From the IMG/VR virus record IMGVR_UViG_3300045988_176106: 64,000 bases of DNA, one strand, 5' to 3'. Positions within the stretch are counted from its first letter, which is position 1, and every line of letters begins with the position of its first letter. Under the pieces are notes generated by a model. The model was given only the letters and a program-made list of their open reading frames with translations. It searched no databases and was not told the DNA's origin. Shown here in pieces: positions 12,653 through 39,700 of the stretch. The position numbers and the translations under genes are program-made. This DNA is from a virus.

Positions 12653-12679
12653 TAGCTACTAATAGCGGAGTTTTAAAAT

Positions 12680-13552: not shown

Positions 13553-13583
13553 TATAGCAAAATAAATTAGGAAAATACATAAT

Positions 13584-14807: not shown

Positions 14808-14837
14808 TATAAACCCATAAGTGTTTATTGGCTAATT

Positions 14838-14872
14838 GGGAGGTAGGGTCTACTCCCTACCTCCCTTTTTTA
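14838..14872 (+). terminator. Rho-independent terminator after the capsid gene
   Basis: Perfect 11-bp stem GGGAGGTAGGG / CCCTACCTCCC with a 6-nt loop (TCTACT), followed by TTTTTTATT. Confidence 0.9.
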
Positions 14873-14887
14873 TTGGATTAAAAATAT

Positions 14888-15475
14888 ATGCAAATAAAAA
14901 TTAAATTAGTTGGCTCATCATTCTTATTTGGTGAAAAGTTCTCTATGATAAGAGGACAAGAAAAAGTTCTCGATTCTGACAAATTAAATATTGCAGATCT
15001 TGAAATTATCTCACATTACATTCGTTCAGGTACACTGGAATCAACTGCCAATGCTGATGATATTATGAGCATTGCTCTTGAGTTGAGAGAGCAAGTTTCA
15101 AATGGCGACACAGATAAAGTGTTTCATCTTCAAAATGAGGCATCTGTAGAAGTTGTTGATGCAGAGATTGTTGATGAAAATGGTAATGTTACAACAACTG
15201 CTGAAATTCTGGAAAGAAAACAATTGAAATCAGATATGGAAACATTTGTTGCAGATAAAGTTGTTAATGCTAATGGAGCTCAAGCTCTTGTAGCACTTAA
15301 AAATTCTCCATATCAAACTAAAGAAGATTTAGAGTACGCATTAAATGCAGAAGTTGAATCTAAAAATCGTAAAACAGTTGTAGCGTTAATTGAAGAGCAA
15401 TTAGCCGCTCTTAATACTAAACAAGAAGAGCAGATTCAAGAAGAAGAACAAGAAGAAGTAGTATCAGAAGAGTAA
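14888..15475 (+). CDS. Acidic hypothetical protein (C-terminal E/Q-rich tail)
   Basis: 195-aa ORF after the terminator, ending ...QEEQIQEEEQEEVVSEE. No clear Shine-Dalgarno site; an internal ATG (MIRGQEK) is an alternative start. Confidence 0.65.
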   Translation: MQIKIKLVGSSFLFGEKFSMIRGQEKVLDSDKLNIADLEIISHYIRSGTLESTANADDIMSIALELREQVSNGDTDKVFHLQNEASVEVVDAEIVDENGNVTTTAEILERKQLKSDMETFVADKVVNANGAQALVALKNSPYQTKEDLEYALNAEVESKNRKTVVALIEEQLAALNTKQEEQIQEEEQEEVVSEE

Positions 15476-15482
15476 CATAATT

Positions 15483-16520
15483 ATGTCAGATAATATATTA
15501 AAAGTATTAAATTCAGAAGATGAATTAAAATTTATGCCATTAAAGGGCGCTATAAAACTTAAATTATCTGGCAGTTACTTTCCATATGCGCTTAATGAAC
15601 ATATATCTCTTAAAAGAATTCATAATAAAGAAGGAATAAATCATTATTCTAAATCGTATAGTGATATGTTCAGAATAGATGAATTCAGAAAAGAGGAAGT
15701 AGATGTAGAGTATAAGGATGGCGTAATAACAATTATTCCTAAAGAGATGTTTCAGGACAATTCCAAATACGCCCTTTACATTGATTCCGGTTTAATGAGT
15801 ATATCAAATGTTCATCAAATAAATGGCAATGATACTGATCTTATATCAAGCACCCTTAACGATAAAAATGTTTTAATAAAAGTTTCGTCAGGGTTTCTCA
15901 ACGAAAATAATAAAATATTTGTAGCTAGTGTATCTATTGAAGGGCAGCTTGTAGAAAACTCTAAGCTAATAACAGTTCCTAGTAATATTAATATTAGAGG
16001 AGTAGATATTTCATTTAAAGATGGATTTATCCCTCATATAGACGATGAGATATCAATAACTGTTACAGCATCACAAATACTTGATAAAGATTTTAAATTA
16101 GAATTTGGAACTGGCACAGCAAGCCCATTAGAAGATAAAACTCCTAAATCTACATCTGGTAGGATAGGCGAATCAGACCTGAAAGAGTTTTACAATGGTT
16201 TAAGTGGATCAAATACAGCTAAAACGACTAATGGTGTAACTACAAGTTCTGTATCATACAGACTTGAAGTAAGACAGCCATCAAAAGCTATGATCGTATT
16301 TGATAAAGAAATAGATAAAGACACTACAGATATAAATTCATTTGATGTAGAATTTATGGAGGCATTTGATAATTACCATTTATCCATGATGGGATTATAT
16401 GAATTGCCGAAGTATATATTAGAATTCTCTATAATTAGGGGTGGAAAAGTATTACAAATAGAGCTAATACAAAATGTAAACCCTAGTGCACCAAATGTAA
16501 TACGTAGGTGGAAAGAATGA
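15483..16520 (+). CDS. Hypothetical virion protein, possibly Ig-like beta-sandwich domains
   Basis: 345 aa. A segment such as VDVEYKDGVITIIPKEMFQDNSKYALYIDSGL resembles bacterial Ig-like (SbsA/Big-type) strands. This is a weak call. Confidence 0.7.
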   Translation: MSDNILKVLNSEDELKFMPLKGAIKLKLSGSYFPYALNEHISLKRIHNKEGINHYSKSYSDMFRIDEFRKEEVDVEYKDGVITIIPKEMFQDNSKYALYIDSGLMSISNVHQINGNDTDLISSTLNDKNVLIKVSSGFLNENNKIFVASVSIEGQLVENSKLITVPSNINIRGVDISFKDGFIPHIDDEISITVTASQILDKDFKLEFGTGTASPLEDKTPKSTSGRIGESDLKEFYNGLSGSNTAKTTNGVTTSSVSYRLEVRQPSKAMIVFDKEIDKDTTDINSFDVEFMEAFDNYHLSMMGLYELPKYILEFSIIRGGKVLQIELIQNVNPSAPNVIRRWKE

Positions 16521-24770: not shown

Positions 24771-25442
24771 ATGAATAATAGAATGCTTATAAACTCTATA
24801 TCAATAGGATTTAAAGACGAGACAAAAACAACGCTTACAGGTGTTGTTTTTGATTTTGATCTTAATCCATTTTATGCATCAATAAGAGATATAGAAATAT
24901 CTTTTCCAACTGAAATATCATTTTCGGAGGATTTTATAGTTCGTTTAAATGAAATGATATTCAGAAAGTCTGTATGGATAAGTAATTACATAAAAAGAAA
25001 AAATCTCAAATTGACATACGAAGAGATATATGCGATATGTAGAGACTATGTTATATGTGCTATAGTTTCTGATGTTGCAAATCTTTTATATGGAACATCA
25101 TCTAAGAATGAATCAGTTAAAAAGATTCTTGGCGATTTTACTGTAGAAAGAACTAAATCATCTAATTCTGGTAATAATAATTCTAAGATAGCCGATGAGG
25201 CTAAGGAATGTGCCGAGTCTATATTAGCATTAATAGACGATATGTCCAGAGTTAAGGCTATGGGATTTGTAAAAGGTGAAAATAACTGTGGAAATAAATC
25301 TAGTAATAGATTATGGCATAGTCCTAAATTTCTTAGCAAAATGCCTATAGGGGCAAATAAGATATTAGAGTCTGACGGAAAACTATATAAGACTGGATAC
25401 GGATATGGCAACGAATCAGAGCCCCTTTATACAAGAAATTGA
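24771..25442 (+). CDS. Hypothetical protein (head-tail connector/neck candidate by position)
   Basis: 223-aa ORF between the orphan virion block and the neck/sheath genes. Confidence 0.7.
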   Translation: MNNRMLINSISIGFKDETKTTLTGVVFDFDLNPFYASIRDIEISFPTEISFSEDFIVRLNEMIFRKSVWISNYIKRKNLKLTYEEIYAICRDYVICAIVSDVANLLYGTSSKNESVKKILGDFTVERTKSSNSGNNNSKIADEAKECAESILALIDDMSRVKAMGFVKGENNCGNKSSNRLWHSPKFLSKMPIGANKILESDGKLYKTGYGYGNESEPLYTRN

Positions 25443-25926
25443 TCTAAGACATGAATTCCAGATGCTGTTTTCTGGAGGAGAGTTCGTAAAAAAGGGTGAG
25501 ACTTACATATATAGAAAAGTAAGAATCAAAGATGGCTCAAAAGAGAAATGTTCATGTTGGAATAATATATCAAATGAGGGCAGATCTGACTGTCCTCATT
25601 GTGATGGGATAGGATATCTATGGGATGATGTATTGCTTAAGGGTCATATGTGGATGCCTAGAAATACACTAATGCCGGGAGAAAACTCTTATAAATCTTA
25701 CGGAGGTAAGGCCGGCAGACTCAACAACTCTGAATGGTTATTGGCAACATCTTATTCTTTAGACTTTTCTGATAGAGATATAATATACCGCCCAGAAGTA
25801 GATGATAGTGGAAAAGTAATACTTCCAATAAAATCAAAAAAGACATATTATATAACATCTGTATATAGATATGGTTTCGATTTTGATAGGGAAGATTTTA
25901 CAGTCTTAGGGTTATCAGAAGTATGA
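25405..25926 (+). CDS. Neck/head-tail joining candidate with a DnaJ-type zinc-finger motif
   Basis: ATG at 25405 overlaps the upstream gene by 38 nt. CSCW-x11-CPHCDGIGY contains C-x-x-C-x-G-x-G. Confidence 0.7.
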   Translation: MATNQSPFIQEIDLRHEFQMLFSGGEFVKKGETYIYRKVRIKDGSKEKCSCWNNISNEGRSDCPHCDGIGYLWDDVLLKGHMWMPRNTLMPGENSYKSYGGKAGRLNNSEWLLATSYSLDFSDRDIIYRPEVDDSGKVILPIKSKKTYYITSVYRYGFDFDREDFTVLGLSEV

Positions 25927-26681
25927 CAATACAAGTAAACAATGAAAATGATTACGCACTAGATCGTCTCCATAGAATGTCTATTGATAATAGCTTTGTT
26001 GTTACAAACCCAGACGAAGTTTTAAAGAATTATAGGAAATTGACGATTGACAAATTCATAGTATTCCTGTATTCTTTACTAAGCAATAAAGAGATGATTT
26101 TAGAAAACCCTGAAAAGGGTATTGGGCCAAAAGATAGAAATAAATTCTCATTTACAGAGATTTATCCAGATTACGGCGATGTAACTAACACTCATAACAA
26201 TGTTACTTTTGAAATATGGAGCAGAGCTCCGGCAACATTAAAAGCTACAGCAGTATCAACAAATTCCACTAAATGGAATAAGCCAAGGACATTATTTGAA
26301 AAGAAAATGTCAGATGGAGATACATATGAGTTTAAAGAATTTATATATGAAAATATATTAAAATTTACAGTTTGGTCAGAAAAAGCAGATGATGCTAGAA
26401 GATTAGCAACATCATTAGAAAACTTTTTTGCCGATAATTATCATGTATTAAGGATGCATGTAGGCGGACTATATTATGAGGGCAGAAGCCCAACAATATT
26501 ATCCTCAGACTTTGGTTCAAAAAGATTATTCGGAATACCCTTGGTTTATAAAGTAATAACTGAGGAACCTGGATATACACGACGTGGAAATATAGTATCT
26601 ATCGATACTTCATTACAAATAGTTGACTCTTTATTAAACGAAGAGCTCGAAGAACTACAAAAAAGAATAAATAAAAATTAA
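25923..26681 (+). CDS. Tail terminator / tail completion protein candidate
   Basis: ATGA overlap; 252 aa, immediately upstream of the sheath gene. The call is by position only. Confidence 0.7.
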   Translation: MTIQVNNENDYALDRLHRMSIDNSFVVTNPDEVLKNYRKLTIDKFIVFLYSLLSNKEMILENPEKGIGPKDRNKFSFTEIYPDYGDVTNTHNNVTFEIWSRAPATLKATAVSTNSTKWNKPRTLFEKKMSDGDTYEFKEFIYENILKFTVWSEKADDARRLATSLENFFADNYHVLRMHVGGLYYEGRSPTILSSDFGSKRLFGIPLVYKVITEEPGYTRRGNIVSIDTSLQIVDSLLNEELEELQKRINKN

Positions 26682-26696
26682 TGGAGCATAATATTT

Positions 26697-28943
26697 ATGG
26701 CTACATATGAAAATCTACCAGGCGTAAATCTGGAGCTTTTAGACGGTAATTTAAGAGTAGACGCTACATCAGATGCCAATCGTGTCTTAATTATCGGTCG
26801 TGCTGAAACAGGTACATCTGGAAGAATATATAATGTTGGTGACACCAACAAGGCTGCTAATACATTTGGCCCAGAATCTCCTCTGATCAGGAAGATGTCT
26901 GAGGCTCGCTTAGGTGGTGCAACAGAAGTATCTCTATATCGTATTGGTGGATCTCCAGCATCATTAAATGGTCTATGGGGTGAAGGTTCTCAACTTGCAA
27001 CAGTAGAAGAATCTGTTGTAGCTGGTGACAGCTTCCGTATTTATTGCGGTCCTCGTCCTAGCAACGATGGTAAATCATGCTTGATCGTATTCAAGGGTAA
27101 AAATATTGTTTACTCTAACGTTCCTGGTTCTGAAATTGACCTTAACCAAGTAACAGTTACAGGGTTTGATGAAACAACAGGTGTTGTAATCGGTACTCCT
27201 ACTGAACCTGTTCTGATGTCAAACATTATCCCAGTAACCAAAAAAGGTGAATCAAATCACATTAGCAATGGCGTTAATACAGAATTTAGACTTATTGGTA
27301 CAACAAAAACTGATAACGTTACAAATGTTGTTGTTAAAGTTAATGAAGAAGAGAAAACATCTGGTACAGATTACACTCTAACAAAAGACACTTTAAATAA
27401 CTACTGGAAAATAAAATTCAATTCTGCACAAGATGCACGTGCAAAAATTAATGTAACATATGACTATATCGCTACTGGTAATGAAGCTGGTGCAGCTGTA
27501 TTCAGCGGCGACGGCGCTAAAACTAAATTTGTTTTAGCAGGCACTCATCCTAGCAGCAATGTTACCGTTGACCGTGTTGTAGTTGCTGGTGTAGATAAAA
27601 CATCTGAAGCCACAGTTGAAGACAGCGACGATAATCTAAGCAAAGCGCTTGTACTGCAAACTGCTCCAGGCGATCAAGAAGCAATTGCTGTTGACTACAC
27701 TATTGCTAAAACAGGATCTTCAGTTCCTGGTACATTTAAAGAAGGTAAAGACAGCCTGAACTGTACATGGAAAGAATACTACGAGATTCTTTACGCTGGG
27801 CTTAAAGATCTTGAAACAGTAAATGCAATGTCTGTTGTTACAGACTACGCTATCGTTGATGCACCAAATATTGCATCTGGTTCTACTGCCAAAGACAGAC
27901 TGGAATATGTATATGTTTCAGAAGAAGATGGCGAATACAAATTCGAATGGTCTACATCTAAAGTTGTATATCGTAAAGGCAGTGGTACCACATTGAACTC
28001 CTCTGAGGCAGATATTAACGGTAACGGACAACCTATCGTTTACAGACGTTATCATGAGGCTGATTTTGCACACTTGCTGGCAGAATTCGCATACAATATC
28101 TCTGAAAATGAACAATTTACACTTGTAACAATTGGTACATCAGTTCCTCAAACTACATCTACATTTGCAGTTAACAAATGGGTTGGATCTGCTCCTACCT
28201 ATGATGCCGCTGGTAATATCATCACTAACGGTACTGGTCTGCTTGGTGTTCGCCATATGGTAGAACGTGCTGACCAAGCTCAAGGTTACTACAAAACTTC
28301 ATCTGGCTTCGTTGACGGTGTTGTTCAAGTAGATAGTAATGGCGCCAACATTGACATTGGTAAATACTTATCAGTTGTTCCACAATTAGTTATTACTCCA
28401 GCTAGCTCATCTACTGGTACATCAACCAGAATCACAAATGCTGCAGCTATCTATGCTGGTCTATTAACAACAATTGTAGCTGGTAACTCTACTACAAATG
28501 CTCCTCTGCCAAGATTGAGCCTGCCATTTGAGATGAAGAAAACCAAATTGAACCAACTGTCTAGCGCCGGTTATGTAACATTCCAAACTAAGAATAACAC
28601 TGTTCGCGTAGTGTCTGGTGAATTGGCTACTAACATAAATTCAGACTATGATTATGTTTCTACATCAATCATCATCAACTCTGTTATTACTGGTATTCGT
28701 AACGTATGTATTCCTTACATTGGTAAGGGTCTAACAGAGGCAACTAAAGTTGCTCTTGATACAGCTATCGAATCTGTACTTGACCAAGCAGTTGCTGCAG
28801 ATGCAGTAGTTAAATATGCTCACGTTGTTAACCAACCTACTGTTATCAACGGAAAAGGTACTTTAAACGTAGCGTTAACAATCGTTCCAGCCTTCGAGCT
28901 TCGTGAAGTTAACGTAGCAGTTAAATTAGCTTTAGATCTTTAA
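26697..28943 (+). CDS. Tail sheath protein
   Basis: 748 aa. N-terminus MATYENLPGVNLELLDGNLRV... and the C-terminal region ...LSSAGYVTFQTKNNTVRVVSGELATN... are typical of contractile sheath proteins. High-expression codon style, followed by the tube genes and a terminator hairpin. Confidence 0.85.
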   Translation: MATYENLPGVNLELLDGNLRVDATSDANRVLIIGRAETGTSGRIYNVGDTNKAANTFGPESPLIRKMSEARLGGATEVSLYRIGGSPASLNGLWGEGSQLATVEESVVAGDSFRIYCGPRPSNDGKSCLIVFKGKNIVYSNVPGSEIDLNQVTVTGFDETTGVVIGTPTEPVLMSNIIPVTKKGESNHISNGVNTEFRLIGTTKTDNVTNVVVKVNEEEKTSGTDYTLTKDTLNNYWKIKFNSAQDARAKINVTYDYIATGNEAGAAVFSGDGAKTKFVLAGTHPSSNVTVDRVVVAGVDKTSEATVEDSDDNLSKALVLQTAPGDQEAIAVDYTIAKTGSSVPGTFKEGKDSLNCTWKEYYEILYAGLKDLETVNAMSVVTDYAIVDAPNIASGSTAKDRLEYVYVSEEDGEYKFEWSTSKVVYRKGSGTTLNSSEADINGNGQPIVYRRYHEADFAHLLAEFAYNISENEQFTLVTIGTSVPQTTSTFAVNKWVGSAPTYDAAGNIITNGTGLLGVRHMVERADQAQGYYKTSSGFVDGVVQVDSNGANIDIGKYLSVVPQLVITPASSSTGTSTRITNAAAIYAGLLTTIVAGNSTTNAPLPRLSLPFEMKKTKLNQLSSAGYVTFQTKNNTVRVVSGELATNINSDYDYVSTSIIINSVITGIRNVCIPYIGKGLTEATKVALDTAIESVLDQAVAADAVVKYAHVVNQPTVINGKGTLNVALTIVPAFELREVNVAVKLALDL
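27264..27704 (+). repeat. Two tandem ~70-aa beta-rich insertion domains inside the sheath protein (protein-level repeat)
   Basis: Unit 1: SNGVNTEFRLIGTTKTDNVTNVVVKVNEEEKTSGTDYTL...KINVTYDYI. Unit 2: FSGDGAKTKFVLAGTHPSSNVTVDRVVVAGVDKTSEATVE...AIAVDYTI. Confidence 0.6.
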
Positions 28944-28951
28944 TAAAGAAT

Positions 28952-28973
28952 AGGAGAGGGTAATCCTCTCCTT
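28952..28973 (+). terminator. Stem-loop after the sheath gene (probable partial terminator/attenuator)
   Basis: AGGAGAGG gtaat CCTCTCCT: 8-bp stem, 5-nt loop, 9 nt after the sheath stop. The downstream T-tract is weak (TTAAC). Confidence 0.6.
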
Positions 28974-28991
28974 AACAATCAGGATAAAATT

Positions 28992-29666
28992 ATGTCAGAA
29001 TTTAAGGAATACCACAGCTTTGGTGGTGTAGATATCACACCTGTATTCGGTAGCAAAGTATTCGGCGAAATGTCAATGGTTTCTTACCGTGTAGACAGAG
29101 AGAAAGCCCCTGTATTTACAATGGGTTCTCCTGATGCCAAAGCAATTGCACGTGGTAAACGTTATGTTTCTGGAGCTTGTGTCTTCACTGTATTCGACCG
29201 TGACTCTCTGCTTGAAGCGATGGATGAACAAGATAATACAACCGTTTATCTAAGCAAACATGAGTCTGCAAACTACCAACGTGGTGGTATTTACAGTCAA
29301 ATTAATGGTGGTAAATATCAGGACGGTTATGCATCTACTGCTGCTTCTGCTGCAACTAGATCAGGCGGTACAGTTGCTGCTGACTACAACTTCACTGCAA
29401 ACAGTCTTACTTCTAATACAAACATCAATAACGCATTGCGTACCAAAACGAAAGCTAACCTTGCCGACCAAGTATTGGCATTTGATATTAGCCTTGTTGC
29501 TACAAATGAATATGGTCATACATCTAAGATGGTAATCTACGGTGTAGAGCTTATGAGTGAAGCTGGTGGTGTGTCTGTTGATGACCTTGTTCTAGAAAAA
29601 CAAATGTCATTTATTGCTAAACGTGTTTCTAACTGGATGGCAATTGACAGCTATAATAGCAAATAA
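28992..29666 (+). CDS. Tail tube protein
   Basis: 224 aa directly after the sheath gene, with AGGA 7 nt upstream of the ATG and high-expression codons. It is the founding member of three tandem paralogs. Confidence 0.75.
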   Translation: MSEFKEYHSFGGVDITPVFGSKVFGEMSMVSYRVDREKAPVFTMGSPDAKAIARGKRYVSGACVFTVFDRDSLLEAMDEQDNTTVYLSKHESANYQRGGIYSQINGGKYQDGYASTAASAATRSGGTVAADYNFTANSLTSNTNINNALRTKTKANLADQVLAFDISLVATNEYGHTSKMVIYGVELMSEAGGVSVDDLVLEKQMSFIAKRVSNWMAIDSYNSK

Positions 29667-29693: not shown

Positions 29694-31085
29694 ATGTCAT
29701 ACGACAATATACGAAAGGGAGAGTATCATTCAGTGGGTGGCGATGCCACCCACATTATTTTTAACTTTCCTGGATACGGCGCACTGTATATGGGAAGTTT
29801 GATATCTCTCTCATATCAGACATACAGGGATAAAGTACCTGTCTACAATCTAGGAAATACTAATATTGATGGGTTTGCTATTGGGAAGAGATATGTAGCT
29901 GGCTCTATTATAAAAGCAATGTTTCTAAATGATGACCTTAGGGCATTCTTAAATGAAGTATCAAAAGATATAGGTCTAAATAAAGATATAGATTCTATAT
30001 ATCAATTAAAATATGAAAATTCTAAAACATATCATCATCTTATGATGGATGATATATTGCCATTCGATATAATAATAGTATTAAGCTCTGAGTACGGAAA
30101 TTTTTCAGTATCAGAAGTAATATATGGCGCAACACTTATAAATTCTGGTCAAGTACATTCTATACAAGACCTTATTGTTGAGAACACAATATCATTTGTA
30201 GCTCGTGATGCTAGACAGACTCTTGAAAGTTTGAATTCTACAAAGTACAATATAACTACAGGTGGTGCAGGAACAAAGGCATCTGAACTCTCAGATACAT
30301 CTAATACAAAATACAAATCAGATAAATCAAATAGTAATCCAGATCAAGAATGGTTTAAAGATGCTTTAGAGAAATATAAGTATCAGGCAAATCTTGATGG
30401 ACAACTTACTGCAGATGAGCAGAAAGTTATATCAACATTATCCCAATTGGCAGGATTAGGAGAAGATCCTAATTATAATTGGGAATCTTTACCGGCTGAA
30501 TATAAAATATATAAAAATGACCCATATACAAATGGCGGCACTAAAAAATATGTATATCCAAAATCTCAAGATATAGATTCATCATCTCTTACTGCACTAG
30601 ATAAAGGCGATAAATTTATAGTTGACGATGGTGATACATTAGTGTGGACAGGGGGTGTAAAAACATCTACGGGAAGTGACTATAGTGGTAAATTTACTAT
30701 ACGTCTCTTAGGAATAGATACTCCTGAAACAGAACATAAGGACCTGAAGCCACAAGAGTATGGATATAAAGCATCAGATTTTATGAAAGAGTATGTCAAA
30801 TCTGGCAAATGGGATCAGGATGTAAGAGATGGTGTAGTTAAAATTGCTGGCACAGATGTTTATGGCCGTACACTAGTGTATAATTATAATTATGTACTAG
30901 CAGCTGTATCTGCTGGCACTGCACATTATATGGACGGCGGTGTCAAACAAATAGGCGAATCAGAGGATAGAAGAGCCAAGCTCAATGAAGCCGCATTGGA
31001 AGCTAAAAGAGAAAAACGTGGGTTATGGGGAACTGGCAATACAGTAATAATGCCGTCTGTTTGGCGTAAAAATAATAAGAAATAG
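29694..31085 (+). CDS. Tail-tube paralog fused to a C-terminal staphylococcal nuclease (SNase/thermonuclease) domain
   Basis: GGAG 6 nt upstream of the ATG. The N-terminal ~175 aa align by eye with the tube protein (EYHSVGGDATHIIF / EYHSFGGVDITPVF; AIGKRYVAGS / ARGKRYVSGA; FDIIIVLSSEYGNFSVSEVIYG / FDISLVATNEYGHTSKMVIYG). The C-terminus carries DDGDT...FTIRLLGIDTPETEH...YGYKASDF...DVYGRTLVY...AKREKRGLWG. Confidence 0.85.
   Translation: MSYDNIRKGEYHSVGGDATHIIFNFPGYGALYMGSLISLSYQTYRDKVPVYNLGNTNIDGFAIGKRYVAGSIIKAMFLNDDLRAFLNEVSKDIGLNKDIDSIYQLKYENSKTYHHLMMDDILPFDIIIVLSSEYGNFSVSEVIYGATLINSGQVHSIQDLIVENTISFVARDARQTLESLNSTKYNITTGGAGTKASELSDTSNTKYKSDKSNSNPDQEWFKDALEKYKYQANLDGQLTADEQKVISTLSQLAGLGEDPNYNWESLPAEYKIYKNDPYTNGGTKKYVYPKSQDIDSSSLTALDKGDKFIVDDGDTLVWTGGVKTSTGSDYSGKFTIRLLGIDTPETEHKDLKPQEYGYKASDFMKEYVKSGKWDQDVRDGVVKIAGTDVYGRTLVYNYNYVLAAVSAGTAHYMDGGVKQIGESEDRRAKLNEAALEAKREKRGLWGTGNTVIMPSVWRKNNKK
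30612..31031 (+). other. SNase (thermonuclease) domain of the tube-paralog fusion
   Basis: Matches S. aureus nuclease landmarks: DGDT (D21), R in RLLGID (R35), IDTPE (D40, T41, E43), YGR (R87) and the terminal K..GLW. Confidence 0.85.
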
Positions 31086-31093
31086 GATAGTGA

Positions 31094-31918
31094 ATGAGTA
31101 CAATAACCGCATTAGTTGATAGAGATGATGGAACTGTGGATACAGTTTATGCATCTGAAAATAGAGATGGAAGTGTATCATTGACTACCGTAAACTCGGG
31201 GACTGGTGAAACAAGAAGTGGAGCCAGTCCAAAAGGAACTGCTAGGGCAGCTAATACTTCTAATAGTTCAAATAAGAATTCTAAAACAGGCACATTGTAT
31301 CATGCAGATGTAGACGAGATAGAAGTTAAAGGTAAGAGACAACCAAAAGGTCATAGCTTCGTAAACGGCCTGTATAATAAATACTATTCATCGAGTGACT
31401 GTATGATCTATATAGAAGATATATGGCTTGATAAAGTTTCTGGCATAGGTATAAATGAGTCACTGTCTAGTGTTCCTATATATACAATAGGAAATTCTAG
31501 GTACAGTTTTCTATCAAGAGGAAACAATATAGTAACTGGTTTCATATCTATAAATAAATGTACTAAAGATTATTTGCCAATAGTTCTGGAAAATATAAAT
31601 AAAAATTCTGAGTTTAGAAAATTGACCCCATATGAACAAATGCAGCTTACATCTGAAGAGTTGAGAGTATACAAAGAAAAAGAAGCTGCAATGGAATCTG
31701 GTAAGGTGTCTAATAAATCTGTATTAGACTGGGCAGACTTAGATACATTTAATATAACTATATCATACAATAACGGAGACCCAACTATGGCTGGTGTAAA
31801 ACAATATGTTGATATACAAGAAATAAGAATAATAGGGTTCGAAACTAGTATAGATATAGGAAGTGATGGACAACTAATAGATGGCTACAGATTTATAGCT
31901 AAAGAAGTAAGAGGATAA
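31094..31918 (+). CDS. Third, more diverged tail-tube paralog with a ~95-aa Ser/Thr/Asn-rich N-terminal extension (tube initiator or terminator candidate)
   Basis: VPIYTIGNSRYSFLSRGNNIVTGFISI parallels APVFTMGSPDAKAIARGKRYVSGACVF. The C-terminal FNITISYNNGD...IIGFETSIDIGSDGQLIDGYRFIAKEV parallels FDISLVATNEYG...IYGVELMSEAGGVSVDDLVLEKQMSFIAKRV. Confidence 0.7.
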   Translation: MSTITALVDRDDGTVDTVYASENRDGSVSLTTVNSGTGETRSGASPKGTARAANTSNSSNKNSKTGTLYHADVDEIEVKGKRQPKGHSFVNGLYNKYYSSSDCMIYIEDIWLDKVSGIGINESLSSVPIYTIGNSRYSFLSRGNNIVTGFISINKCTKDYLPIVLENINKNSEFRKLTPYEQMQLTSEELRVYKEKEAAMESGKVSNKSVLDWADLDTFNITISYNNGDPTMAGVKQYVDIQEIRIIGFETSIDIGSDGQLIDGYRFIAKEVRG

Positions 31919-31919
31919 T

Positions 31920-32414
31920 ATGTCATTAACAGTAGACGAAGTAAAAGGCCTAAGTACATTACCGGAAGATGATCTTACAGTTGAAGAAGCAATAGAGATA
32001 TCACAGAAGCTTGAAGAGGAAAAAGATAAAGAGGTCCAAGAAGAGTCAGAGATGTCTCTTATAGTTAAAACATTAGCTATGCTTGAGGATGCTCCAACAG
32101 AGGCAGATATTGAGAATTGGAAATCTCAATACGGAACAATACATATATCAACTATACTTAATGGATCAGATTTGTACTTGTGGCGCACCTTGCGTAGACA
32201 AGAATATAAACAATTAATGAAAAGTGGATTCTTAAACGAAGTTCTTCGCGGAGAAGAAGCTATAGTTAAAAAATGTTTACTATATCCTAAACCAGACGAA
32301 AAGTTTATGGCAACATCAAGCGCGGGTGTAGTATCATCACTAAAAGAACAGATAATGTACAAATCTTCATTTGTGCCAGAGTCTATAGCTTTAAGCCAAA
32401 TAAAGGTTATATAA
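31920..32414 (+). CDS. Acidic small protein, tail assembly chaperone candidate
   Basis: 164 aa with an acidic N-terminus, located between the tube genes and the giant tail-internal proteins. The call is by position only. Confidence 0.55.
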   Translation: MSLTVDEVKGLSTLPEDDLTVEEAIEISQKLEEEKDKEVQEESEMSLIVKTLAMLEDAPTEADIENWKSQYGTIHISTILNGSDLYLWRTLRRQEYKQLMKSGFLNEVLRGEEAIVKKCLLYPKPDEKFMATSSAGVVSSLKEQIMYKSSFVPESIALSQIKVI

Positions 32415-32415
32415 T

Positions 32416-32946
32416 ATGAATGCAATAGGTGTCAAATCAGGAAGCTTAATAATTCCATTTAACGATACTGATATAGAATTAGGTGGATATATCTATAGGA
32501 ATCTTATAGTTATTGCAAGAATGCTTAACTCCGTAGAGCTACAAAGAATACTTATGATGGATCTCGAGAGGGGTTATGTAAGAGAAGAGCTATACGAGGA
32601 TATATTTAGAGAATGCTATATATCAATTCCTGGAATAGTTGGAGATATAAATTTTGATGAGGCACCTGCTGGATTTATAACAACTGTCGCTAGTGTAATA
32701 CTATCTAAATCATTAGAGTATTCTACTGACCCACAAAAGGCATTTGAAAGAGATAGAGAATCTGTGTCTTTATTAGATCAAATGGCTGCAATAGTTTCCA
32801 GATATATGAACACTCCATACCTAGAAGTTGTAGAGCTTCCAGTAAATAAGTTATTTGAATTGTATGCAATATGTCATGCGACATATCCAGAGCATGTAAA
32901 AGAAATAGTTGTAGAAGAACCACAAAACAATATTCCTCCGGTGTAA
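32416..32946 (+). CDS. Tail assembly chaperone candidate
   Basis: 176 aa, immediately upstream of the giant ORFs. The call is by position only. Confidence 0.55.
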   Translation: MNAIGVKSGSLIIPFNDTDIELGGYIYRNLIVIARMLNSVELQRILMMDLERGYVREELYEDIFRECYISIPGIVGDINFDEAPAGFITTVASVILSKSLEYSTDPQKAFERDRESVSLLDQMAAIVSRYMNTPYLEVVELPVNKLFELYAICHATYPEHVKEIVVEEPQNNIPPV

Positions 32947-32948
32947 TC

Positions 32949-35900
32949 ATGTCAGCACAAAATTTAGCAGCAAATATATTTGGTCGCAAAGTATTTGACG
33001 AAGGTATACAACCAGGGGATGTAAAATCCCCATATAATATGTATACTTCAGACGATGTAAATACGTATGAAGATATACAGGCTACAAAAGAAATTATAGG
33101 CTCTATAACAAAGTATGGATTATCAGCAGGTGCATTATTTACAGTAAAAGAGCTACTAAAAAGACAAAGCGCACAAAATAAGCTTAGAGACTATATAACT
33201 CTAAGTTATCTATCTGAATCAATTAACGGAACAGCAGATGATGCTGTACGAGCATACGGCGGGAGAGTCACCTTAACGAACTTAGCAATGAATACTGCTA
33301 GGGCGTTTGAGGAGCTCTCCCCTTTTTCTATTTTAAAGACATTCCAAACATCTCATATTATGCAGCCGTTTGCAACAAAAACTGGCGAGCATTTCTTCAC
33401 ACCAGAATTATTAAAGTACCAGAAAAAATATTTCGAAGAGCTTGCACATAAGTATGGCAATAGAGGTATAACATCCGCCGACATATCTACAGGCATATTA
33501 TATAAAGACGGCAAATTATTTTCATCTAGTGGTGAAGAAATAATAAGCAATGCAAGACTTGTTACATCTGAATGGACAGGACATACAGGTGGCCATGATG
33601 AAGGGTCAATGTATAACAAAATTTTAAGAAGACATATCTTGCGTCATCAAGATATGAGTGCACAGTCAAGAAAAGAAATATTTGATTTGTCTAAAAATAT
33701 ACTTGATACAGAGGCACCATTTACTGTTATAGCAGATACAAAAGACACAAATATTAATAAAGGCTGGATAAAATCTGTAATAGGCCAAGGTGTAGCACAA
33801 GGCTTTAACATGGTTAATGAACCATTAGGATTCGTTGAAGAACTTGGTGGCACATTATTCAATGAAAACAATAGCGTATTTAGATTTATAAATAAATATG
33901 GGAAAATAAATCCGCATGCAAATGCGGATATGAAAATAGCCGACTTGGCAGTTGGTTACGTTAGGCATGGCGCTGTTAAACTTGGGATACTTGGTGCGGC
34001 ATATTATACATTAGATAATATGGCCAAGGTAATTGGAACAAGTGGTAGTGGATATGATCAGGGTATAATAGAGGGCGTATCTACAACGGCTGTAAATGCA
34101 AAAATAGCATATGCTGAAATGGTGTCAGATAGATTCGAAGAGTATACTACACAACAAGAATATGTTGCACCAGGATCAACATCATTATTAAGATTAGCCG
34201 GGTTCCCATTAGTAGGAGCTATGCTTGCAGGTACGGTAGCATATAGTAAGCGTGTAGTTCCATCTGTATTATCAGATGAGGGATATAAAGCTGGACAAAG
34301 AATGGCCCATACACAGGGCGATGTAATAAGTTCTGGAGTTTCACAGCTTGTAAGTAACACATCTATAGAGTCTTCATTGGGTAGAATAGGAAATACCAAA
34401 AAATGGGCAATGAGAGGTGCTTTAGCTGGACTTGCATTAGCATTACCATTTTTACCTGGAGCACTAGCTGGTGAATCATCTGATTCAATAAAAGACAGAT
34501 ATCTGTACGGCGAAGATGTAGAACAAAGATCAAATGCATTATGGTTTTCAGGATCAACAGATATAGAAGGTGGAGGTATAAAATACTTCACTAAAAACTG
34601 GTATCAAAGACTGATGGCCGGGAATAAAGACAAAATATTATATGGAGATGGGGATACAAAAGAGGAGCTTAATCCTTTTCTAAATCCAATAGATTATCTA
34701 CAAAATCCGTATAGACTTGAAGAAATGCATCAGGATGATATGCCTTATCCAATATGGGGTATGGATGTATCTGTTGGCGGATGGGCCGGTAAAATATTTG
34801 AACGAACAATAGGTCAAATAATAAAACCGGACAGAATAAATCCAAATATGGCGCAGTTAATGGAAAATCCTAATTCAATAGATCAGGATTACTACGCTAG
34901 TGATGAAAATTCATATGCATTCGCTTATAACTTCGGGGATATAACAAGAAAGCCTAGTTTTGAAGTTCCAGTAAATTACTCAAATGTAGAACAGTCATTA
35001 ATAAACGATGACATGATAACAAAAAGGAAGAATTTAACATATTCTCCATATGCAGAATCAGCGCAATATATATATAATTCTGCATCAGACTATATAGGTC
35101 TTAAAGGATGGGCTATATCAGGAGCTCTAAGTGAATTTGCTGTTGGAGATTTTTCTCAAAAGGATCAATTAGCAAGATCAGGTGAATCAACAAATGTAGC
35201 AAGAGAGTTTGTAGAGCAAAACCTTGGTGGATTATTCGGCGCAGCAGATATACTTCGCCGTATAGTTCCAATGTCATCTAGCGTATTGTATGATAGAGCT
35301 AATCCATTACATAATAGCGTTGCTCCATCTTGGCTTCCAAGTGGAGAATATTATACAAACTTTTCAAAGGGTAATTATTATGGACATGTTGATCTAGGCT
35401 ACGATAGAATGCCTGGATTAGGATATGAATATTATAACCCAGAAGTAAAAGGTTTAAATCTAGAAGATTATCCTGATATACATAAATTTAAAGTATTATC
35501 AGATGTTGCATACGGTTCAAGTGAATTCTATAACGCAAAAGAGCTAATGGAGTCTAAATATAACTCTGGAGAGATGACGGAATCTGAAATAGTAATATAT
35601 GAGACTACATGGGATCAATTACAAAGACGTGCGCAAAAGAAAACATTTGCAGAGTATAAAACGGACGAAGATTATGACAATGTATCGGTTGGTGGGGAAC
35701 TTCTTGGCAAATTATGGGAAACAATAACACATAATGCAGAACTTCCAACAGAAAGGCTTACATTCTTTAGACCTGCCGGTAAACTATTACACCAAAGAAC
35801 AGCAATAGAGGATTATGAAAAGACTCAACTTATTGCATCTGATACAGCATTATGGAATGAACCATTCAAGCATTTTATAAGACCATTTATGGAGGAAAGT

Positions 35901-36773
35901 TATAAAACTTTCGATAAATCATATATTCCTGAGCATACTCAAGAAAAAAGAAATATAGATAATTACTTTGATGCATTAGAATACTATAAACAAATGAAGG
36001 TTTATAGAGAAAACGCTAAAGGTAATTTATTTATGGCAAATCAGGCCAAAGCTAAAGCATATAAAACAACATATGGTGCATTAGCATCAGGACTAGATTC
36101 TGAATCAGATGTAAGTTCTGCATATATGGGTTTATCTAGCGAAGAGAAACAATACTTTACTTCATTCGTTAATGCAAAAGATTCCGATAGAGAAAGAATA
36201 GCGTCTATTGTCGATGGTAATAATATATCAGAAATATACAAGATGTTATGGAGTAGGAAGGATGTTATAGAGTCCGGAGGAGATATATCAGAATATCTTC
36301 AAGATGAAGAGCAGCAACTTATACAAAGCAATCGTCAAGTATACAATGCTTATGAAAGAAGTGGAGATGCCGATATAGGCATATCATTTAGGGAATATCT
36401 ACAAGAAAAAAGAGCAGAGAAACTTATAGTAGATGCAACAGGTATGCCTGACGAAGAATTTGCAGGATGGGACCCAAGATTAAATGTAAAAGATATAAAA
36501 CTTAGAACATTAAATATTGGTGGAGAGAATGCAATAGAATTCGGATACTATCAGGATGACCAAGATGATCTAAAAAGACAATCGGCAATATTAGCAGAAG
36601 ATCAAGTAACTACTCAATTAAAATCTATAAGAAGAACAAAAGCTCAGCAAAGATTTGATACCTCAAATATGATAAAAGATGAATTATATCGTAATGGTAT
36701 AAGAGCAGTAAATGTAAATATAAGCAATAGTGGTCATGGTGATTTTGATATGACCGTATATAATAGGCAATAA
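32949..36773 (+). CDS. Giant tail-internal/ejection protein candidate (1274 aa) with three hydrophobic segments in its first half
   Basis: I prefer the ATG at 32949 (2 nt after the upstream stop; MSAQNLAANIFG...) to the listed ATG at 32871. Hydrophobic segments GAVKLGILGAAYY, LLRLAGFPLVGAMLAGTVAY and ALAGLALALPFLPGALAG. The C-terminal two-thirds is aromatic-rich. Confidence 0.8.
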   Translation: MSAQNLAANIFGRKVFDEGIQPGDVKSPYNMYTSDDVNTYEDIQATKEIIGSITKYGLSAGALFTVKELLKRQSAQNKLRDYITLSYLSESINGTADDAVRAYGGRVTLTNLAMNTARAFEELSPFSILKTFQTSHIMQPFATKTGEHFFTPELLKYQKKYFEELAHKYGNRGITSADISTGILYKDGKLFSSSGEEIISNARLVTSEWTGHTGGHDEGSMYNKILRRHILRHQDMSAQSRKEIFDLSKNILDTEAPFTVIADTKDTNINKGWIKSVIGQGVAQGFNMVNEPLGFVEELGGTLFNENNSVFRFINKYGKINPHANADMKIADLAVGYVRHGAVKLGILGAAYYTLDNMAKVIGTSGSGYDQGIIEGVSTTAVNAKIAYAEMVSDRFEEYTTQQEYVAPGSTSLLRLAGFPLVGAMLAGTVAYSKRVVPSVLSDEGYKAGQRMAHTQGDVISSGVSQLVSNTSIESSLGRIGNTKKWAMRGALAGLALALPFLPGALAGESSDSIKDRYLYGEDVEQRSNALWFSGSTDIEGGGIKYFTKNWYQRLMAGNKDKILYGDGDTKEELNPFLNPIDYLQNPYRLEEMHQDDMPYPIWGMDVSVGGWAGKIFERTIGQIIKPDRINPNMAQLMENPNSIDQDYYASDENSYAFAYNFGDITRKPSFEVPVNYSNVEQSLINDDMITKRKNLTYSPYAESAQYIYNSASDYIGLKGWAISGALSEFAVGDFSQKDQLARSGESTNVAREFVEQNLGGLFGAADILRRIVPMSSSVLYDRANPLHNSVAPSWLPSGEYYTNFSKGNYYGHVDLGYDRMPGLGYEYYNPEVKGLNLEDYPDIHKFKVLSDVAYGSSEFYNAKELMESKYNSGEMTESEIVIYETTWDQLQRRAQKKTFAEYKTDEDYDNVSVGGELLGKLWETITHNAELPTERLTFFRPAGKLLHQRTAIEDYEKTQLIASDTALWNEPFKHFIRPFMEESYKTFDKSYIPEHTQEKRNIDNYFDALEYYKQMKVYRENAKGNLFMANQAKAKAYKTTYGALASGLDSESDVSSAYMGLSSEEKQYFTSFVNAKDSDRERIASIVDGNNISEIYKMLWSRKDVIESGGDISEYLQDEEQQLIQSNRQVYNAYERSGDADIGISFREYLQEKRAEKLIVDATGMPDEEFAGWDPRLNVKDIKLRTLNIGGENAIEFGYYQDDQDDLKRQSAILAEDQVTTQLKSIRRTKAQQRFDTSNMIKDELYRNGIRAVNVNISNSGHGDFDMTVYNRQ

Positions 36774-36775
36774 AT

Positions 36776-39700
36776 ATGGATCCAATTAAACAACCTAAAT
36801 TATTACTAGGTGGCGCAATAATAGGCGCTATGTCACAAGACCCAGAAGACCATCCAATAGCATCTGCATTAGGTATGGGAATAGGAGCTTATGTAGGTAA
36901 TTCACTGCAAATATCTAAAAGGGTATCTAGAGCTAGAAAAGAAATAGCAGACGATATATCATTTAACAGGGCTGACCTTTCTGGATACAGGGGATTGTCC
37001 AGAAGGGCAGCTAATAGGTTCGTAGATAAATTTGCTAGGAATGCAAAAGAAATGCATATGAATCTAAGTGCCCAAGCATATGCATCTCTAAATATAGGTA
37101 GATTTGGTAGTAACACAAGCAGTAGAGAAGCGCAGGTTGCTCTGTCTGAAATGCATAAACTTACACAACAAGGTATGCAGTCATACAAAGAGGCCGTAAA
37201 AAGAAACTTCTCAATGATATATGGACAAGATATAACATCTGTTATTGGCAATGATTTGTTCGACAATATATTTGAGTCATGGTTAAACAATAAAAACCTT
37301 GAGCAGATAAAACAAACATTGCCTACCCATATAAAAGATAAAAATGTGTTATCTGCTCTACTTAGCTCTTCAATGCCTAATGCAATAACGGGCGTATTAG
37401 ATGCAGAAACTGGACTCCTTATCCCTACATCTAGCCTACAAAAACTAAACCTTTCTAGTGTACCAGAAACAAACTTTAATAGAGGTAAATCTCTTGATCT
37501 AAGTATAAGTGCAACATCAGAACAAAAGACTGGTGCAATAAAAGAATATCTTGTAAAAGAACTTAATTATCCTGAAATAGAGGCATTTAGAGTAGCCTCA
37601 AATATAGGTAATAATACTGAAAACAGCAAGATAAGCTTTGAAGGTAATAAGATAAGTATAACAAAAGATGGTGTTACTGGCTCATTACATATGGAAGAGT
37701 ACAGTAAAGATGGATCTAAATTTGTATCTAAGGGCGGGAATATATATTCTGCTGAATCATATAATCAATTCCAGCTTCTTGGCGACAGTACAAAAGTAAA
37801 AGGCAATATATATACAAATACAAGTGGACCATTTTCATCATCATCTCCAGAAGTAAAATCACAAGTATTTACTCCTGTAGAGTCAATGCTATTTGAACAC
37901 TTAAATACAAATAAATCTCTTGAAGAGGTATCTAAGAAATTTTCTGACAGAATAGAATATATAGGTCCTAAAACAGATTTAGTAAAACTATCTGATATGC
38001 CTATAAAAAATAAACTTACTAATATAAGTGAACAATTTTACCGTAATGATATAACAAGAGAGATACAGGGTATAAGATCAATTAATGCAGAAGAGTATAA
38101 AAATATTATTGAAAATATAGAAATAGATAGGATGAGAAATGGCCTTAATCCTGGATTCAATAATATAAGACACTCTGACCAGGCAAAAGTGTTTATGGGT
38201 GATAATAATAAATCCGTATATACCGGCATAGTGTCATCTCCTGATCGTGATGCTACATATGCATCACGAGGAAATATATCTGTATCTGGTGATAATAGCG
38301 AGCTAAATAGAGCTGTTAAGGAATTATCAAATAGTGGTGTAGATGCATCATCATTTAATGGTGTTAAAAGTATAGGATTTAACGCTGTTGGATATGATTA
38401 CAACTATAGCTTAGGAAGCTGGGTAACTGGTACTGCTATAGGCGACGGCCAATCAATAATACAAGAGTCAGATTATACCGTTAGAAAAGCAACAACTATA
38501 TCACTTGGCAACAAAGATTTTGTAGCATCTAGTGATGCAGCAGAAAAGATACAGTCACTTATAAACGGTACAAATGAGGGACCGGTTACATTCAAAGGTG
38601 GAGAACTTTTAGGTTTTTCAAATGGCGAAGAAGTAAGGGCACCTAGACATTTTGAAACAGTAGAATTATCACAAGTAGTAAACTCTGCAGGAAAATATAA
38701 ACTAATTGGTGCCGGCACATCATCTCTATCAAACAATGATGACAACATTGTAAAACTATTCGGAGATCTTAAATCTAATGCAATCGTATTGGATAAACAT
38801 TCTTATAGAAAAGCCATGTACGGATATGCAATGTCAGAACTTGGACTTGTATCAGCAGATACTTCAAACGGGCTTAAGTTTTCTATAAATAAGTTTAGCG
38901 AAATAGGTAAGAATAATTTTCACGCTTTAGTAACTGGACTTATGGCTGCAGATGAAGAGCTGGGAAATACAGGAGAAGGAACTAAAAAATTCTTCGATAG
39001 ACTTCTAAACCTTGTAGACACATCTGATAATAGCAATGCTAGAAGAATACGAGAATATCTTGAAAATAATTCTAGTATAAATTTTGGCGCACAATGGATG
39101 GTTAGAGGATCTGACACGAAAATAGGTTCACAGATATCTGAAGCAGATAGGGCTATTAGAAAGTATAGATTTAGCCCTGATCAAGATACCCTAAAGAATA
39201 TAGTAAATAGAATAGTTGATTCTACAGAATTAGATTCCGAAGGCAGAATAAGTCCAGCAGGAAGAGAATTCGCTAGAATCAAAAAAGAAATAGACGTTTC
39301 TGGTAAGGTTAGTGATGCTAACCAATCTAAACTTATAGGTGCTATATTCGCAAACAATGCGATGTCAGATGGTAAATCGTCTCAAACAGCAATGTCTACA
39401 ATGATAGACATGATAAGTAAAATTGGCTCACAAGCTAACTCTACTGTAAAATTAAATCTTGCCGGGGTTGATATAGATGTAGATCCTAATAATATAGAAA
39501 AAAGTATAGCTAAATATATCAAAGAATCATCATCAAGAATGATTGACTATTCAAATGGCAGAATAAGTCCAGATGATATGTTTAAATCATTACAAGATGA
39601 TTTTTCATCATTATATGGAACTATAAGAAAAAATAATAGGACTGCATTAGGTATGAGTTCATTTGGTGTATTACAAGAGGGCACAAGGGAACTTACAGGT

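Follow-up and report, generated by a model that had tools for sequence, protein, structure and literature searches.

A stretch of 64,000 nucleotides of viral DNA (IMG/VR record IMGVR_UViG_3300045988_176106), here called the window, carries at positions 29694-31085 a gene that raises the question of what a nuclease is doing on a protein of a phage tail. An initial annotation, made from the letters and their translations, had read this gene as a paralog of the tail-tube protein fused to an apparently active staphylococcal nuclease (SNase) domain. In this study the product was compared with sequence and structure databases, with its metagenomic homologues, and with the corresponding genes of other phages. 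The architecture was confirmed, with a tube-fold paralog first, then a long linker, and last an SNase whose active site is intact. The protein may be a minor structural component of the tail, forming a distal adaptor ring whose tethered nucleases, dependent on Ca2+, act outside the cytoplasm; this is the reading favoured here, with a confidence slightly short of even.

Architecture and spread of the fusion

A single open reading frame (ORF) on the + strand, started by ATG and coding for 463 aa, spans exactly positions 29694-31085, with a Shine-Dalgarno motif (GGAG) 7 nt 5' of its start. It divides into three parts, a tube-fold domain, a long linker, and an SNase domain (Table 1), and every element that the initial annotation had listed lies where it was said to lie. 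The identical 463-aa protein was called on fifteen contigs, one of which is named as a human oral metagenome (ERR589407, PRJEB6997). In a search of 5.8 billion proteins, full-length homologues with the same architecture and 34-95% identity form at least 69 clusters, nearly all of them flagged PF00565, and the contigs that bear them reach 170-190 kb, with one of 344 kb. In IMG/VR, the fusion is kept at 25 loci on contigs of 65-188 kb, and one homologue with 54% identity (P0002) is on a contig whose record name starts with HMPC. Overall, the source phage belongs to a clade of large, uncultivated phages with contigs of about 170-190 kb that is, at least partly, human-oral.

An artefactual or chimeric ORF was considered and is ruled out by the identical protein on fifteen contigs together with the 69 homologous clusters. 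Where the homologues carry any name in their source databases, it is 'nuclease-like protein', 'staphylococcal nuclease homologue', or 'endonuclease YncB', and the tube half is absent from all of these names. Among 50,697 deposited phage records, the window between 26 and 36 kb had no megablast match, and no record holds both halves of the fusion together (tblastn, best coverage 40%).

The first ~175 aa had been described as homologous to the adjacent tube protein, and this was borne out: residues 10-171 of the fusion are 29% identical to the adjacent 224-aa ORF at 28992-29666 (BLASTP, E value of 3e-18), and both proteins match PHROG 9206 and PHROG 34314, the fusion with E values of 8e-20 and 1e-19, respectively. 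Among the fusion homologues the tube domain is the most conserved part of the protein, with a mean pairwise identity of 69%. A profile of this domain found no sequence-level homologue among the PDB sequences, but only chance matches with E values of about 1, and therefore a comparison of folds was needed. A first AlphaFold2 (AF2) run, based on an alignment of 24 fusion homologues only, left the N-terminal domain with a predicted local distance difference test (pLDDT) score below 50. In a second run of the N-terminal domain, based on 80 aligned sequences from the wider family, the model of residues 1-187 reached a pLDDT of 81.8 and showed a beta-sandwich with a long hairpin (strands 36-51 and 58-75).

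When this domain was compared with the PDB by Foldseek, as the initial annotation had suggested, 87 matches were obtained at E values of 1e-3 or below, and the 50 matches listed are all tail-tube-fold proteins of phages and contractile injection systems. The matches listed include the tubes of HFTV1 (1e-7) and phage 812, lambda gpV, diffocin, chains from the tube, baseplate, and cap entries of PVC and AFP, one chain from the T4 baseplate-tube complex, and, at rank 50, Hcp (8gra_B, E value of 1.9e-4). Major tube proteins (HFTV1, phage 812, and lambda gpV) rank alongside chains of the PVC and AFP baseplate entries, with E values of 1e-7 to 1e-5. Against BFVD there were 364 matches; the best named ones are gp141 of Bacillus phage 0305phi8-36 (A7KUR5) and the major structural protein of Acinetobacter phage ME3, and gp179 and gp180 of phage G are also among them. 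The similarity of the fusion to gp141 is found by tblastn as well (E value of 2e-14).

Between the two domains, a low-complexity linker of ~130 aa had been described, in agreement with the stretch of 127 residues delimited here, in which S, K, T, D, and N abound. Across the 24 homologues, the mean pairwise identity of the linker is 23%, and its length is kept at 103-139 aa. Since the length is kept and the sequence is not, the linker shows the pattern expected of a spacer with a defined reach. AF2 confidence is low over the linker, with weak helices at 216-232 and 240-252; A196-S197 are the sole near-invariant residues, and nothing convincing as a conserved cleavage site was found in the homologue alignment. 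A match of the linker to PT-VENN (pre-toxin) was set aside as noise (E value of 0.065, 13.8 bits against a cut-off of 20.3).

The proposed check of the C-terminal part against PF00565 gave a match over residues 335-445 (E value of 1.7e-13, 51.4 bits against a cut-off of 21), which spans positions 1-105 of the 107 positions in the Pfam profile. The SNase half also matches S. aureus nuclease chains in the PDB (phmmer, E value of 4e-8). For aa 300-460, AF2 gave pLDDT values of 80-96 and a fold with an oligonucleotide/oligosaccharide-binding (OB) barrel plus three helices, and the full-length model aligned with more than 45 SNase crystal structures in Foldseek, with template modelling (TM) scores of 0.62-0.67 and a probability of 1.00. 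All the SNase landmarks claimed for this domain, including D21, R35, D40, T41, E43, and R87, were recovered by pairwise alignment to S. aureus nuclease A, in which D19/D21/T22 correspond to D312/D314/T315 of the fusion, R35 to R337, D40/T41 to D342/T343, E43 to E345, Y85/R87 to Y390/R392, Y113 to Y412, and W140 to W445.

In the alignment of the 24 homologues, which reach down to 36% identity, residues D312, D314, T315, R337, D342, P344, E345, and R392 are invariant. In some of the homologues, Ala takes the place of T343; the corresponding T41 of SNase ligates Ca2+ via its backbone. The mean pairwise identity of the SNase domain in the fusion family is 43%. Since the catalytic residues and the side-chain Ca2+ ligands are invariant while the domain drifts, it appears that selection acts on catalysis and that the enzyme is kept active. 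SNases are non-specific DNA/RNA endo-exonucleases that strictly need high Ca2+. Just past the last SNase helix, and beyond the Pfam SNase model, the fusion ends in a short tail with P454 and R458 (Table 1); similar PxxWR endings probably occur in bacterial thermonuclease homologues.

A single-sequence search with the SNase half gave only a fragment, and a profile search, used instead, gave 1143 relatives. The nearest stand-alone SNases are 150-250 aa long, are named thermonuclease, micrococcal nuclease, or YncB, and are only 30-37% identical to the fusion; therefore, the SNase module is no recent capture. Some stand-alone relatives include an extracellular Excalibur domain. Of the 117 nearest stand-alone SNases beginning with Met, 100 have a signal-peptide-like N-terminus by a crude hydropathy test, compared with none of 119 internal control windows. 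Therefore, it looks as if this type of enzyme works outside the cytoplasm.

A hidden Markov model (HMM) scan of all window ORFs found no second SNase in the window. Elsewhere, a 488-aa ORF with an N-terminal SNase domain is present at 3824-5290 of an unrelated high-GC phage contig from human faeces (locus L043, MT835813.1), and PHROG 8809, a profile of 2317 positions, contains an SNase-like stretch at positions ~1100-1250. There are thus hints of SNase domains embedded in other very large phage proteins.

The tube-paralog slot and the tail module

The order of the module, which is sheath, tube, second tube-like gene (tube2, here the fusion), third tube-like gene (tube3), chaperones, and tape measure, is common to 0305phi8-36, ME3, Bacillus phage KLEB27-3, and six metagenomic loci, and the synteny is identical in the fusion loci L004-L007, L009, L010, and L012. 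In 0305phi8-36 the slot of the fusion is held by gp141 (YP_001429632), a 502-aa protein annotated as 'tail tube paralog' and noted in GenBank as 'identified as virion protein by mass spectrometry'. RefSeq (L002, NC_009760.1, 5110-7452) names both gp140 and gp141 'major head protein', with the notes 'tail tube' and 'tail tube paralog', and the label of PHROG 9206 for the tube family is likewise 'major head protein'.

To place the slot in a wider family, the tube domain was used in a HMMER scan of 1.84 billion representatives, which gave 1577 family members. Among the 146 best representatives (query excluded), 73 are extended at the C-terminus by at least 100 aa and 53 lack any extension; in the family the extensions reach ~750 aa. 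In the 84 representatives of at least 330 aa, Pfam found the peptidoglycan (PG)-binding domain PG_binding_1 in 29, CarboxypepD_reg, Cadherin-like, Big_1, CHB_HEX_C_1, or SH3_3 in a few, Phage_lysozyme in one, and no nuclease other than SNase. The gene order was checked for three cargo-bearing representatives. P0102, with PG_binding_1, is in the same slot, which follows the tube gene and precedes the chaperones and tape measure, and P0103, with PG_binding_1 and a sub-threshold SH3_3, is directly 3' of a tube gene, with a 1598-aa gene of tape-measure size downstream. P0125, also in this slot, joins a tube paralog to a T4-type lysozyme, in which the E...D...T pattern of T4 lysozyme is recognised by eye. 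A representative without an extension (P0072, 49% identical) occupies the same slot as well.

Overall, in the loci checked, a variable C-terminal module rides on the middle tube paralog, which looks like a modular carrier. The recognisable cargo besides SNase, with PG-binding, SH3, Ig-like, and lysozyme modules, is directed to the cell wall or cell surface. The presence of wall-directed cargo in the same slot therefore suggests action on the host envelope, at the distal end of the tube.

Two further observations concern this family. At the P0125 locus (L039, 7800-9164; ERZ28614469 scaffold_1494), in-frame stop codons are read as Gln, as a comparison of the translated contig with P0125 shows, and the tube and paralog genes look broken under table 11. 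In the most distant SNase-fusion phage (L009), a 1618-aa gene of tape-measure size at 11213-16069 has a precomputed match to Intein_splicing (PF14890), and an intein match is also present in one tube-family representative.

Table 1. Features of the fusion gene and of the surrounding tail module, with positions in the window
Feature	Coordinates	Strand	Evidence
Tube-fold domain of fusion, aa 1-178	29694..30227	+	BLASTP, PHROG, AF2, Foldseek
Linker (tether), aa 179-305	30228..30608	+	Alignment, AF2
SNase domain (PF00565), aa 306-450	30609..31043	+	Pfam, PDB phmmer, AF2, Foldseek
C-terminal tail (aa 451-463) and stop codon	31044..31085	+	Invariant P454 and R458, motif P-x-x-[WHFY]-R
Tail sheath	26697..28943	+	PHROG 16991 'tail sheath', E 1e-68
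Major tail tube protein (tube1), 224 aa	28992..29666	+	PHROG 9206 E 1e-44; tube HMM E 5e-54; syntenic with gp140 'tail tube'
tube3, 274 aa, gp142 slot	31094..31918	+	hhalign 81%, E 1.3e-5, aa 99-229; HMM E 2.6e-6
Two tail-assembly chaperone genes	31920-32414, 32416-32946	+	Syntenic with gp143/gp144 'hypothetical tail chaperonin'
Tape-measure-like protein	32871..36773	+	Position and size, syntenic with gp145
1664-aa protein	36776-41770	+	
Putative baseplate hub, 2018 aa	41780..47836	+	Peptidase_M23 (PF01551) aa 762-856, E 1e-33
Baseplate wedge homologue	49238-50392		

The neighbouring genes form a tail module (Table 1). The HMM scan of the window ORFs found exactly three tube-like genes, all adjacent, and the triplet of tube, tube2, and a weak tube3 is present in five of the six other loci, the third gene being unscored in L041. 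The KLEB27-3 counterpart of tube3 is annotated as a tail tube protein. In tube3 of the window, the first ~95 residues are of low complexity and rich in S, T, N, and G, and residues ~99-245 weakly fit the tube profile. In tube1, an extra low-complexity insertion of ~40-50 residues, rich in A, S, T, and N, is found at aa ~95-160, in the loop after the helix, where the alignment with the paralog has a gap. A perfect 7-bp stem-loop (GGAGAGG-GTAAT-CCTCTCC) is found at 28954-28972, immediately behind the sheath stop codon and ahead of tube1; it may set the ratios of sheath:tube expression, either as an attenuator or as a hairpin that stabilises the mRNA.

Further downstream, the first chaperone-slot gene (31920-32414) is matched by PHROG 29362. 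The second overlaps the longest reading of the tape-measure gene by 76 nt; on identical contigs, gene callers start the tape-measure gene at ~32949. The tape-measure-like protein itself has no family match. The 2018-aa protein with the M23 domain probably corresponds to the hub protein gp147 of 0305phi8-36, which carries an M23 domain as well (PMC2147016); with such a hub, the tail would carry a wall hydrolase besides the nuclease. On the 5' side of the sheath, two of the three genes at 24771-26681 match 'virion structural protein' PHROGs. Over positions 1-64000 there are 58 ORFs of at least 100 aa; all gene-like ORFs are on the + strand, and the minus-strand ORFs are all nested within + strand ORFs. 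The GC content ranges from 28 to 39%, with its peak over the sheath and tube genes, and the GC skew is positive in every 2-kb segment except one.

Proposed placement in the virion and candidate functions

The initial annotation had placed the protein in the tube stack, at the baseplate or the neck end. A position in the tube stack is supported indirectly, by the virion record of gp141 and by the cargo found in the slot, and the baseplate end is favoured over the neck. In contractile systems, one or two tube-like adaptor rings are common between hub and tube (T4 gp48/gp54, Afp5/Afp7), and the C-terminal domains of lambda gpV, T5 pb6, and SPP1 gp17.1* lie on the tube exterior. Since the sheath covers the length of the tube, six appendages of 30 kDa each (up to ~80 kDa in relatives) would fit only at a tube end, and the distal end is preferred because lysozyme and PG-binding cargo makes functional sense there. 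By this analogy, a distal, baseplate-end placement of the paralog appears somewhat more probable than all other arrangements taken together. For the fusion protein itself, we infer that it is part of the virion, that it forms a ring, that this ring is distal, and that the protein acts as an enzyme on the substrates considered below.

A possible mechanism can be described as follows. The N-terminal tube fold would build a six-membered adaptor ring at the distal end of the tube stack, comparable to T4 gp54/gp48, Afp5/Afp7, or siphophage Dit. The C-terminus of the tube fold would face the tube exterior, where a flexible tether of ~100-140 residues would hold the SNase-type nuclease, and approximately six nucleases would be displayed round the baseplate of each virion. 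The enzyme would be silent during assembly in the cytoplasm, in which free Ca2+ is sub-micromolar, and would be switched on once it is outside, for instance at the millimolar Ca2+ of saliva or plaque. Its substrate may be extracellular DNA (eDNA) or RNA of the biofilm matrix, cell-surface DNA, or the viscous DNA of the lysed host, and a large, slowly diffusing virion would thereby reach the cell wall or leave the lysate. The phage DNA would meanwhile be shielded within the capsid and the tube lumen. With Ca2+ gating and a shielded genome, no inhibitor gene would be needed; the gene 3' of the fusion is a tube-like structural one, and no inhibitor or immunity gene is apparent. Jumbo-phage plaques shrink with a more concentrated supporting gel (PMC7232213). 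For such phages, the benefit of cutting through a mesh of DNA would be greatest.

Three roles had been suggested for the nuclease in the initial annotation. The degradation of extracellular or biofilm DNA fits best among them, considering the Ca2+ need and the exported-looking relatives. An attack on DNA after ejection is possible, but it is disfavoured by the same Ca2+ need and by the risk to the incoming genome. The trimming of packaged DNA ends is unsupported.

Several points weigh against a distal ring with extracellular nucleases. Foldseek does not separate major tube, initiator, and terminator proteins, since they share one fold, and thus the distal position rests on analogy and on the types of cargo in relatives. 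PG-binding-type domains of baseplate proteins can be purely structural, like the LysM domains of T4 gp53, P2 gpX, and Afp7, which weakens the argument from PG-binding cargo to wall contact. Within the nuclease, K84 of nuclease A is replaced by V389, homologue P0020 has GKSR in place of YGR, and homologues P0022 and P0024 have DADT in place of DGDT. A scan of genome contigs found neither prophage copies nor host clues. In addition, a 2022 review states that phages are not reported to pursue eDNA degradation actively (PMC9145820), so that the proposed function is without experimental precedent.

Other explanations place the same protein in a different setting. By analogy with the Hcp-ET proteins of type VI secretion systems (T6SS), the ring may sit by the hub and be driven through the envelope on contraction, with the nuclease freed in the periplasm or cytoplasm to act on the nucleic acids of the host, of plasmids, or of competing phages. 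Hcp, a tube-fold homologue, is known with C-terminal DNase toxins that are delivered by contraction (PMC6730261). Its chain 8gra_B is among the structural matches given above, and the position at the tube tip implied by the lysozyme and PG-binding relatives would suit this delivery route too. However, the Ca2+ need of SNase far exceeds the cytoplasmic level, and a non-specific nuclease in the cytoplasm would endanger the incoming phage genome. Moreover, the next gene is tube-like and structural rather than an immunity or inhibitor gene, the nearest SNase relatives resemble exported enzymes and not cytoplasmic toxins, the slot cargo of relatives aims at the wall and not at the cytoplasm, and six external appendages of 30 kDa would have to traverse the baseplate opening; an injected effector is therefore considered unlikely. 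Unlikely to the same degree is a broader form, in which the middle paralog of jumbo myophages like 0305phi8-36 would be a general cargo-display ring at the tube tip, a phage equivalent of the specialised Hcp and VgrG proteins, and the SNase would be carried through the envelope as an effector of the periplasm, the wall zone, or the cytoplasm. It is also rather unlikely that the nuclease, whether virion-borne or made in excess, serves exit only by liquefying the released host DNA after lysis, with no role in adsorption or entry. Such a function would rely on a Ca2+ switch and on extracellular action, as in the distal-ring reading, and would agree with the smaller plaques in more concentrated gel (PMC7232213); the degradation of eDNA by phage DNases set free at lysis is raised as a hypothesis in PMC9145820. 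A soluble stand-alone nuclease would suffice for it, however, and a function tied to the baseplate is suggested by the covalent attachment to a tail ring, which is conserved, by the constrained length of the tether, and by the wall-directed cargo in relatives.

Most of the slot cargo in other lineages consists of binding domains and not enzymes, and inactive SND1-type SNase folds exist (4qmg is among the Foldseek matches), as would suit an SNase/OB fold that binds nucleic acid or another ligand or has a structural role, e.g. in using surface DNA as a receptor or plugging the tail, in the manner of inactive SNase domains of the Tudor-SN type. The invariance of D314, D342, R337, E345, and R392 in a domain whose remaining parts are at 24-43% identity makes such a non-catalytic role improbable. 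Similarly improbable is a proximal neck ring or tube terminator, with the nuclease facing the neck for DNA-end processing or as a collar decoration. Tail terminators share the tube fold, the sheath leaves both tube ends uncovered, and the Foldseek matches include the neck and cap entries 8q01 and 6rap; yet the chains matched in entries of this type are the ordinary tube protein, lysozyme or PG-binding cargo would make little sense at the neck, and DNA ends are the business of terminase. Neck and terminator genes are also usually 5' of the sheath, where the two genes with virion-structural PHROG matches are found. A late cytoplasmic enzyme outside the virion, reusing a tube-like domain for oligomerisation in host DNA breakdown or nucleotide salvage, would explain why the source names mention a nuclease only and why PHROG 452 is classed under nucleotide metabolism. 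It is very improbable, however, for a gene in the middle of a tail operon with conserved synteny, with the tube domain as its best-conserved part, an orthologue in the slot (gp141) recorded in virions, and a Ca2+ requirement that argues otherwise.

Comparison with known systems

The closest known counterpart of the fusion is gp141 of 0305phi8-36, which has the same slot, a homologous tube domain (Foldseek E value of 1.8e-14), and a long C-terminal extension; the difference is that this extension contains no Pfam domain and no nuclease. ME3 gp31 and KLEB27-3 gp027 have neither an extension nor a nuclease, and gp179 and gp180 of phage G are slot-mates without a nuclease. In the literature on phage G, no known role is given to the second tube protein (PMC8570332). 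The swappable C-terminal modules offer a testable hypothesis for the second tube-like gene of phage G and 0305phi8-36, namely that it encodes a distal adaptor or display ring.

With S. aureus nuclease A, the C-terminal part shares the fold, the Ca2+ ligands D21/D40/T41, and R35, E43, R87, Y85, Y113, and W140. It differs in being 26-29% identical, in lacking a signal peptide, and in forming the C-terminal module of a tail protein, as well as in the Val at the place of K84 and in the extra conserved P-x-x-W-R tail.

The initial annotation knew of no described fusion of a tube protein with a nuclease. For a phage tube-SNase fusion this holds so far, as no description was found in the literature, in which subscription journals were thinly covered and the evidence is accordingly weak; SNase and tail tube are also unmentioned in a comparative paper on jumbo phages (PMC7824862). 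In a wider sense there are two precedents. In type VI secretion, tube-nuclease fusions are known as Hcp-ET1, ET3, and ET4, where Hcp is followed by a C-terminal HNH-DNase or by the DNase domain of pyocin S3 or colicin (Ma et al. 2017, as cited in PMC6730261). They resemble the present fusion as tube-fold proteins of a contractile machine with a C-terminal nuclease, and as polymorphic cargo on a conserved scaffold. However, they belong to another tube family with structural similarity only (the Hcp domain, PF05638, had no Pfam match on the N-terminal part of the fusion), their nucleases have different folds, and they are toxins that enter rival cells by delivery and are paired with cognate immunity genes. 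The fusion has no downstream immunity gene and no T6SS cluster, and its surroundings are a phage tail module.

The other precedent is the baseplate hub of prophage BtI1, a counterpart of 0305phi8-36 gp147 and similar to T4 gp27, which has an N-terminal SNase whose utility was described as 'not obvious' (Hardies et al. 2007, PMC2147016). No other SNase on a virion protein was met in the literature search. In this case, an SNase-family domain was grafted on a distal tail protein in the same phage lineage. However, the carrier is the hub and not a tube paralog, the SNase is at the other end of the protein, and the case is known by bioinformatics only.

The adaptor rings (T4 gp48/gp54, Afp5/Afp7, Pvc5/Pvc7, and Dit) are similarly tube-fold paralogs that form one ring each, with three tube-like genes per system as in the window, and some of them carry LysM or carbohydrate-binding modules ('evolved Dit'). 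The Foldseek matches listed include chains 9qgl_5A and 6rao_F, which come from baseplate entries of PVC and AFP. The fusion gene differs in that it adjoins the tube gene and is outside the baseplate cluster. To our knowledge, no enzyme cargo is known on adaptor rings of the T4, Afp, Pvc, or Dit type. Tail lysins and depolymerases, such as the T4 gp5 lysozyme, M23 hubs, and tailspikes, as well as lambda gpV with its Ig-like domain, are comparable as an enzymatic or binding module on a tail protein that copes with the surroundings of the host cell, or as a C-terminal decoration outside the tube fold; here, the substrate would be nucleic acid and the carrier a myophage tube paralog.

If present in the virion and active, the fusion would provide a nuclease as a structural part of the particle, positioned at the tail tip, and a natural example of eDNA degradation by a phage. 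The plaque biofilm of the human mouth is rich in eDNA. Under the same conditions, a 'nucleic-acid depolymerase' would join the lysins and polysaccharide depolymerases as a tail-associated enzyme, and the predicted Ca2+-gated, self-silencing nuclease tethered to a tail would be of interest for the engineering of anti-biofilm phages. If instead the reading as an injected effector were true, this would be the first virion-delivered phage nuclease effector mounted on the tube itself. Set beside Hcp-ET, the BtI1 hub, and the adaptor rings, a nuclease on a tube ring would be surprising to a specialist in tail structure, and not paradigm-breaking.

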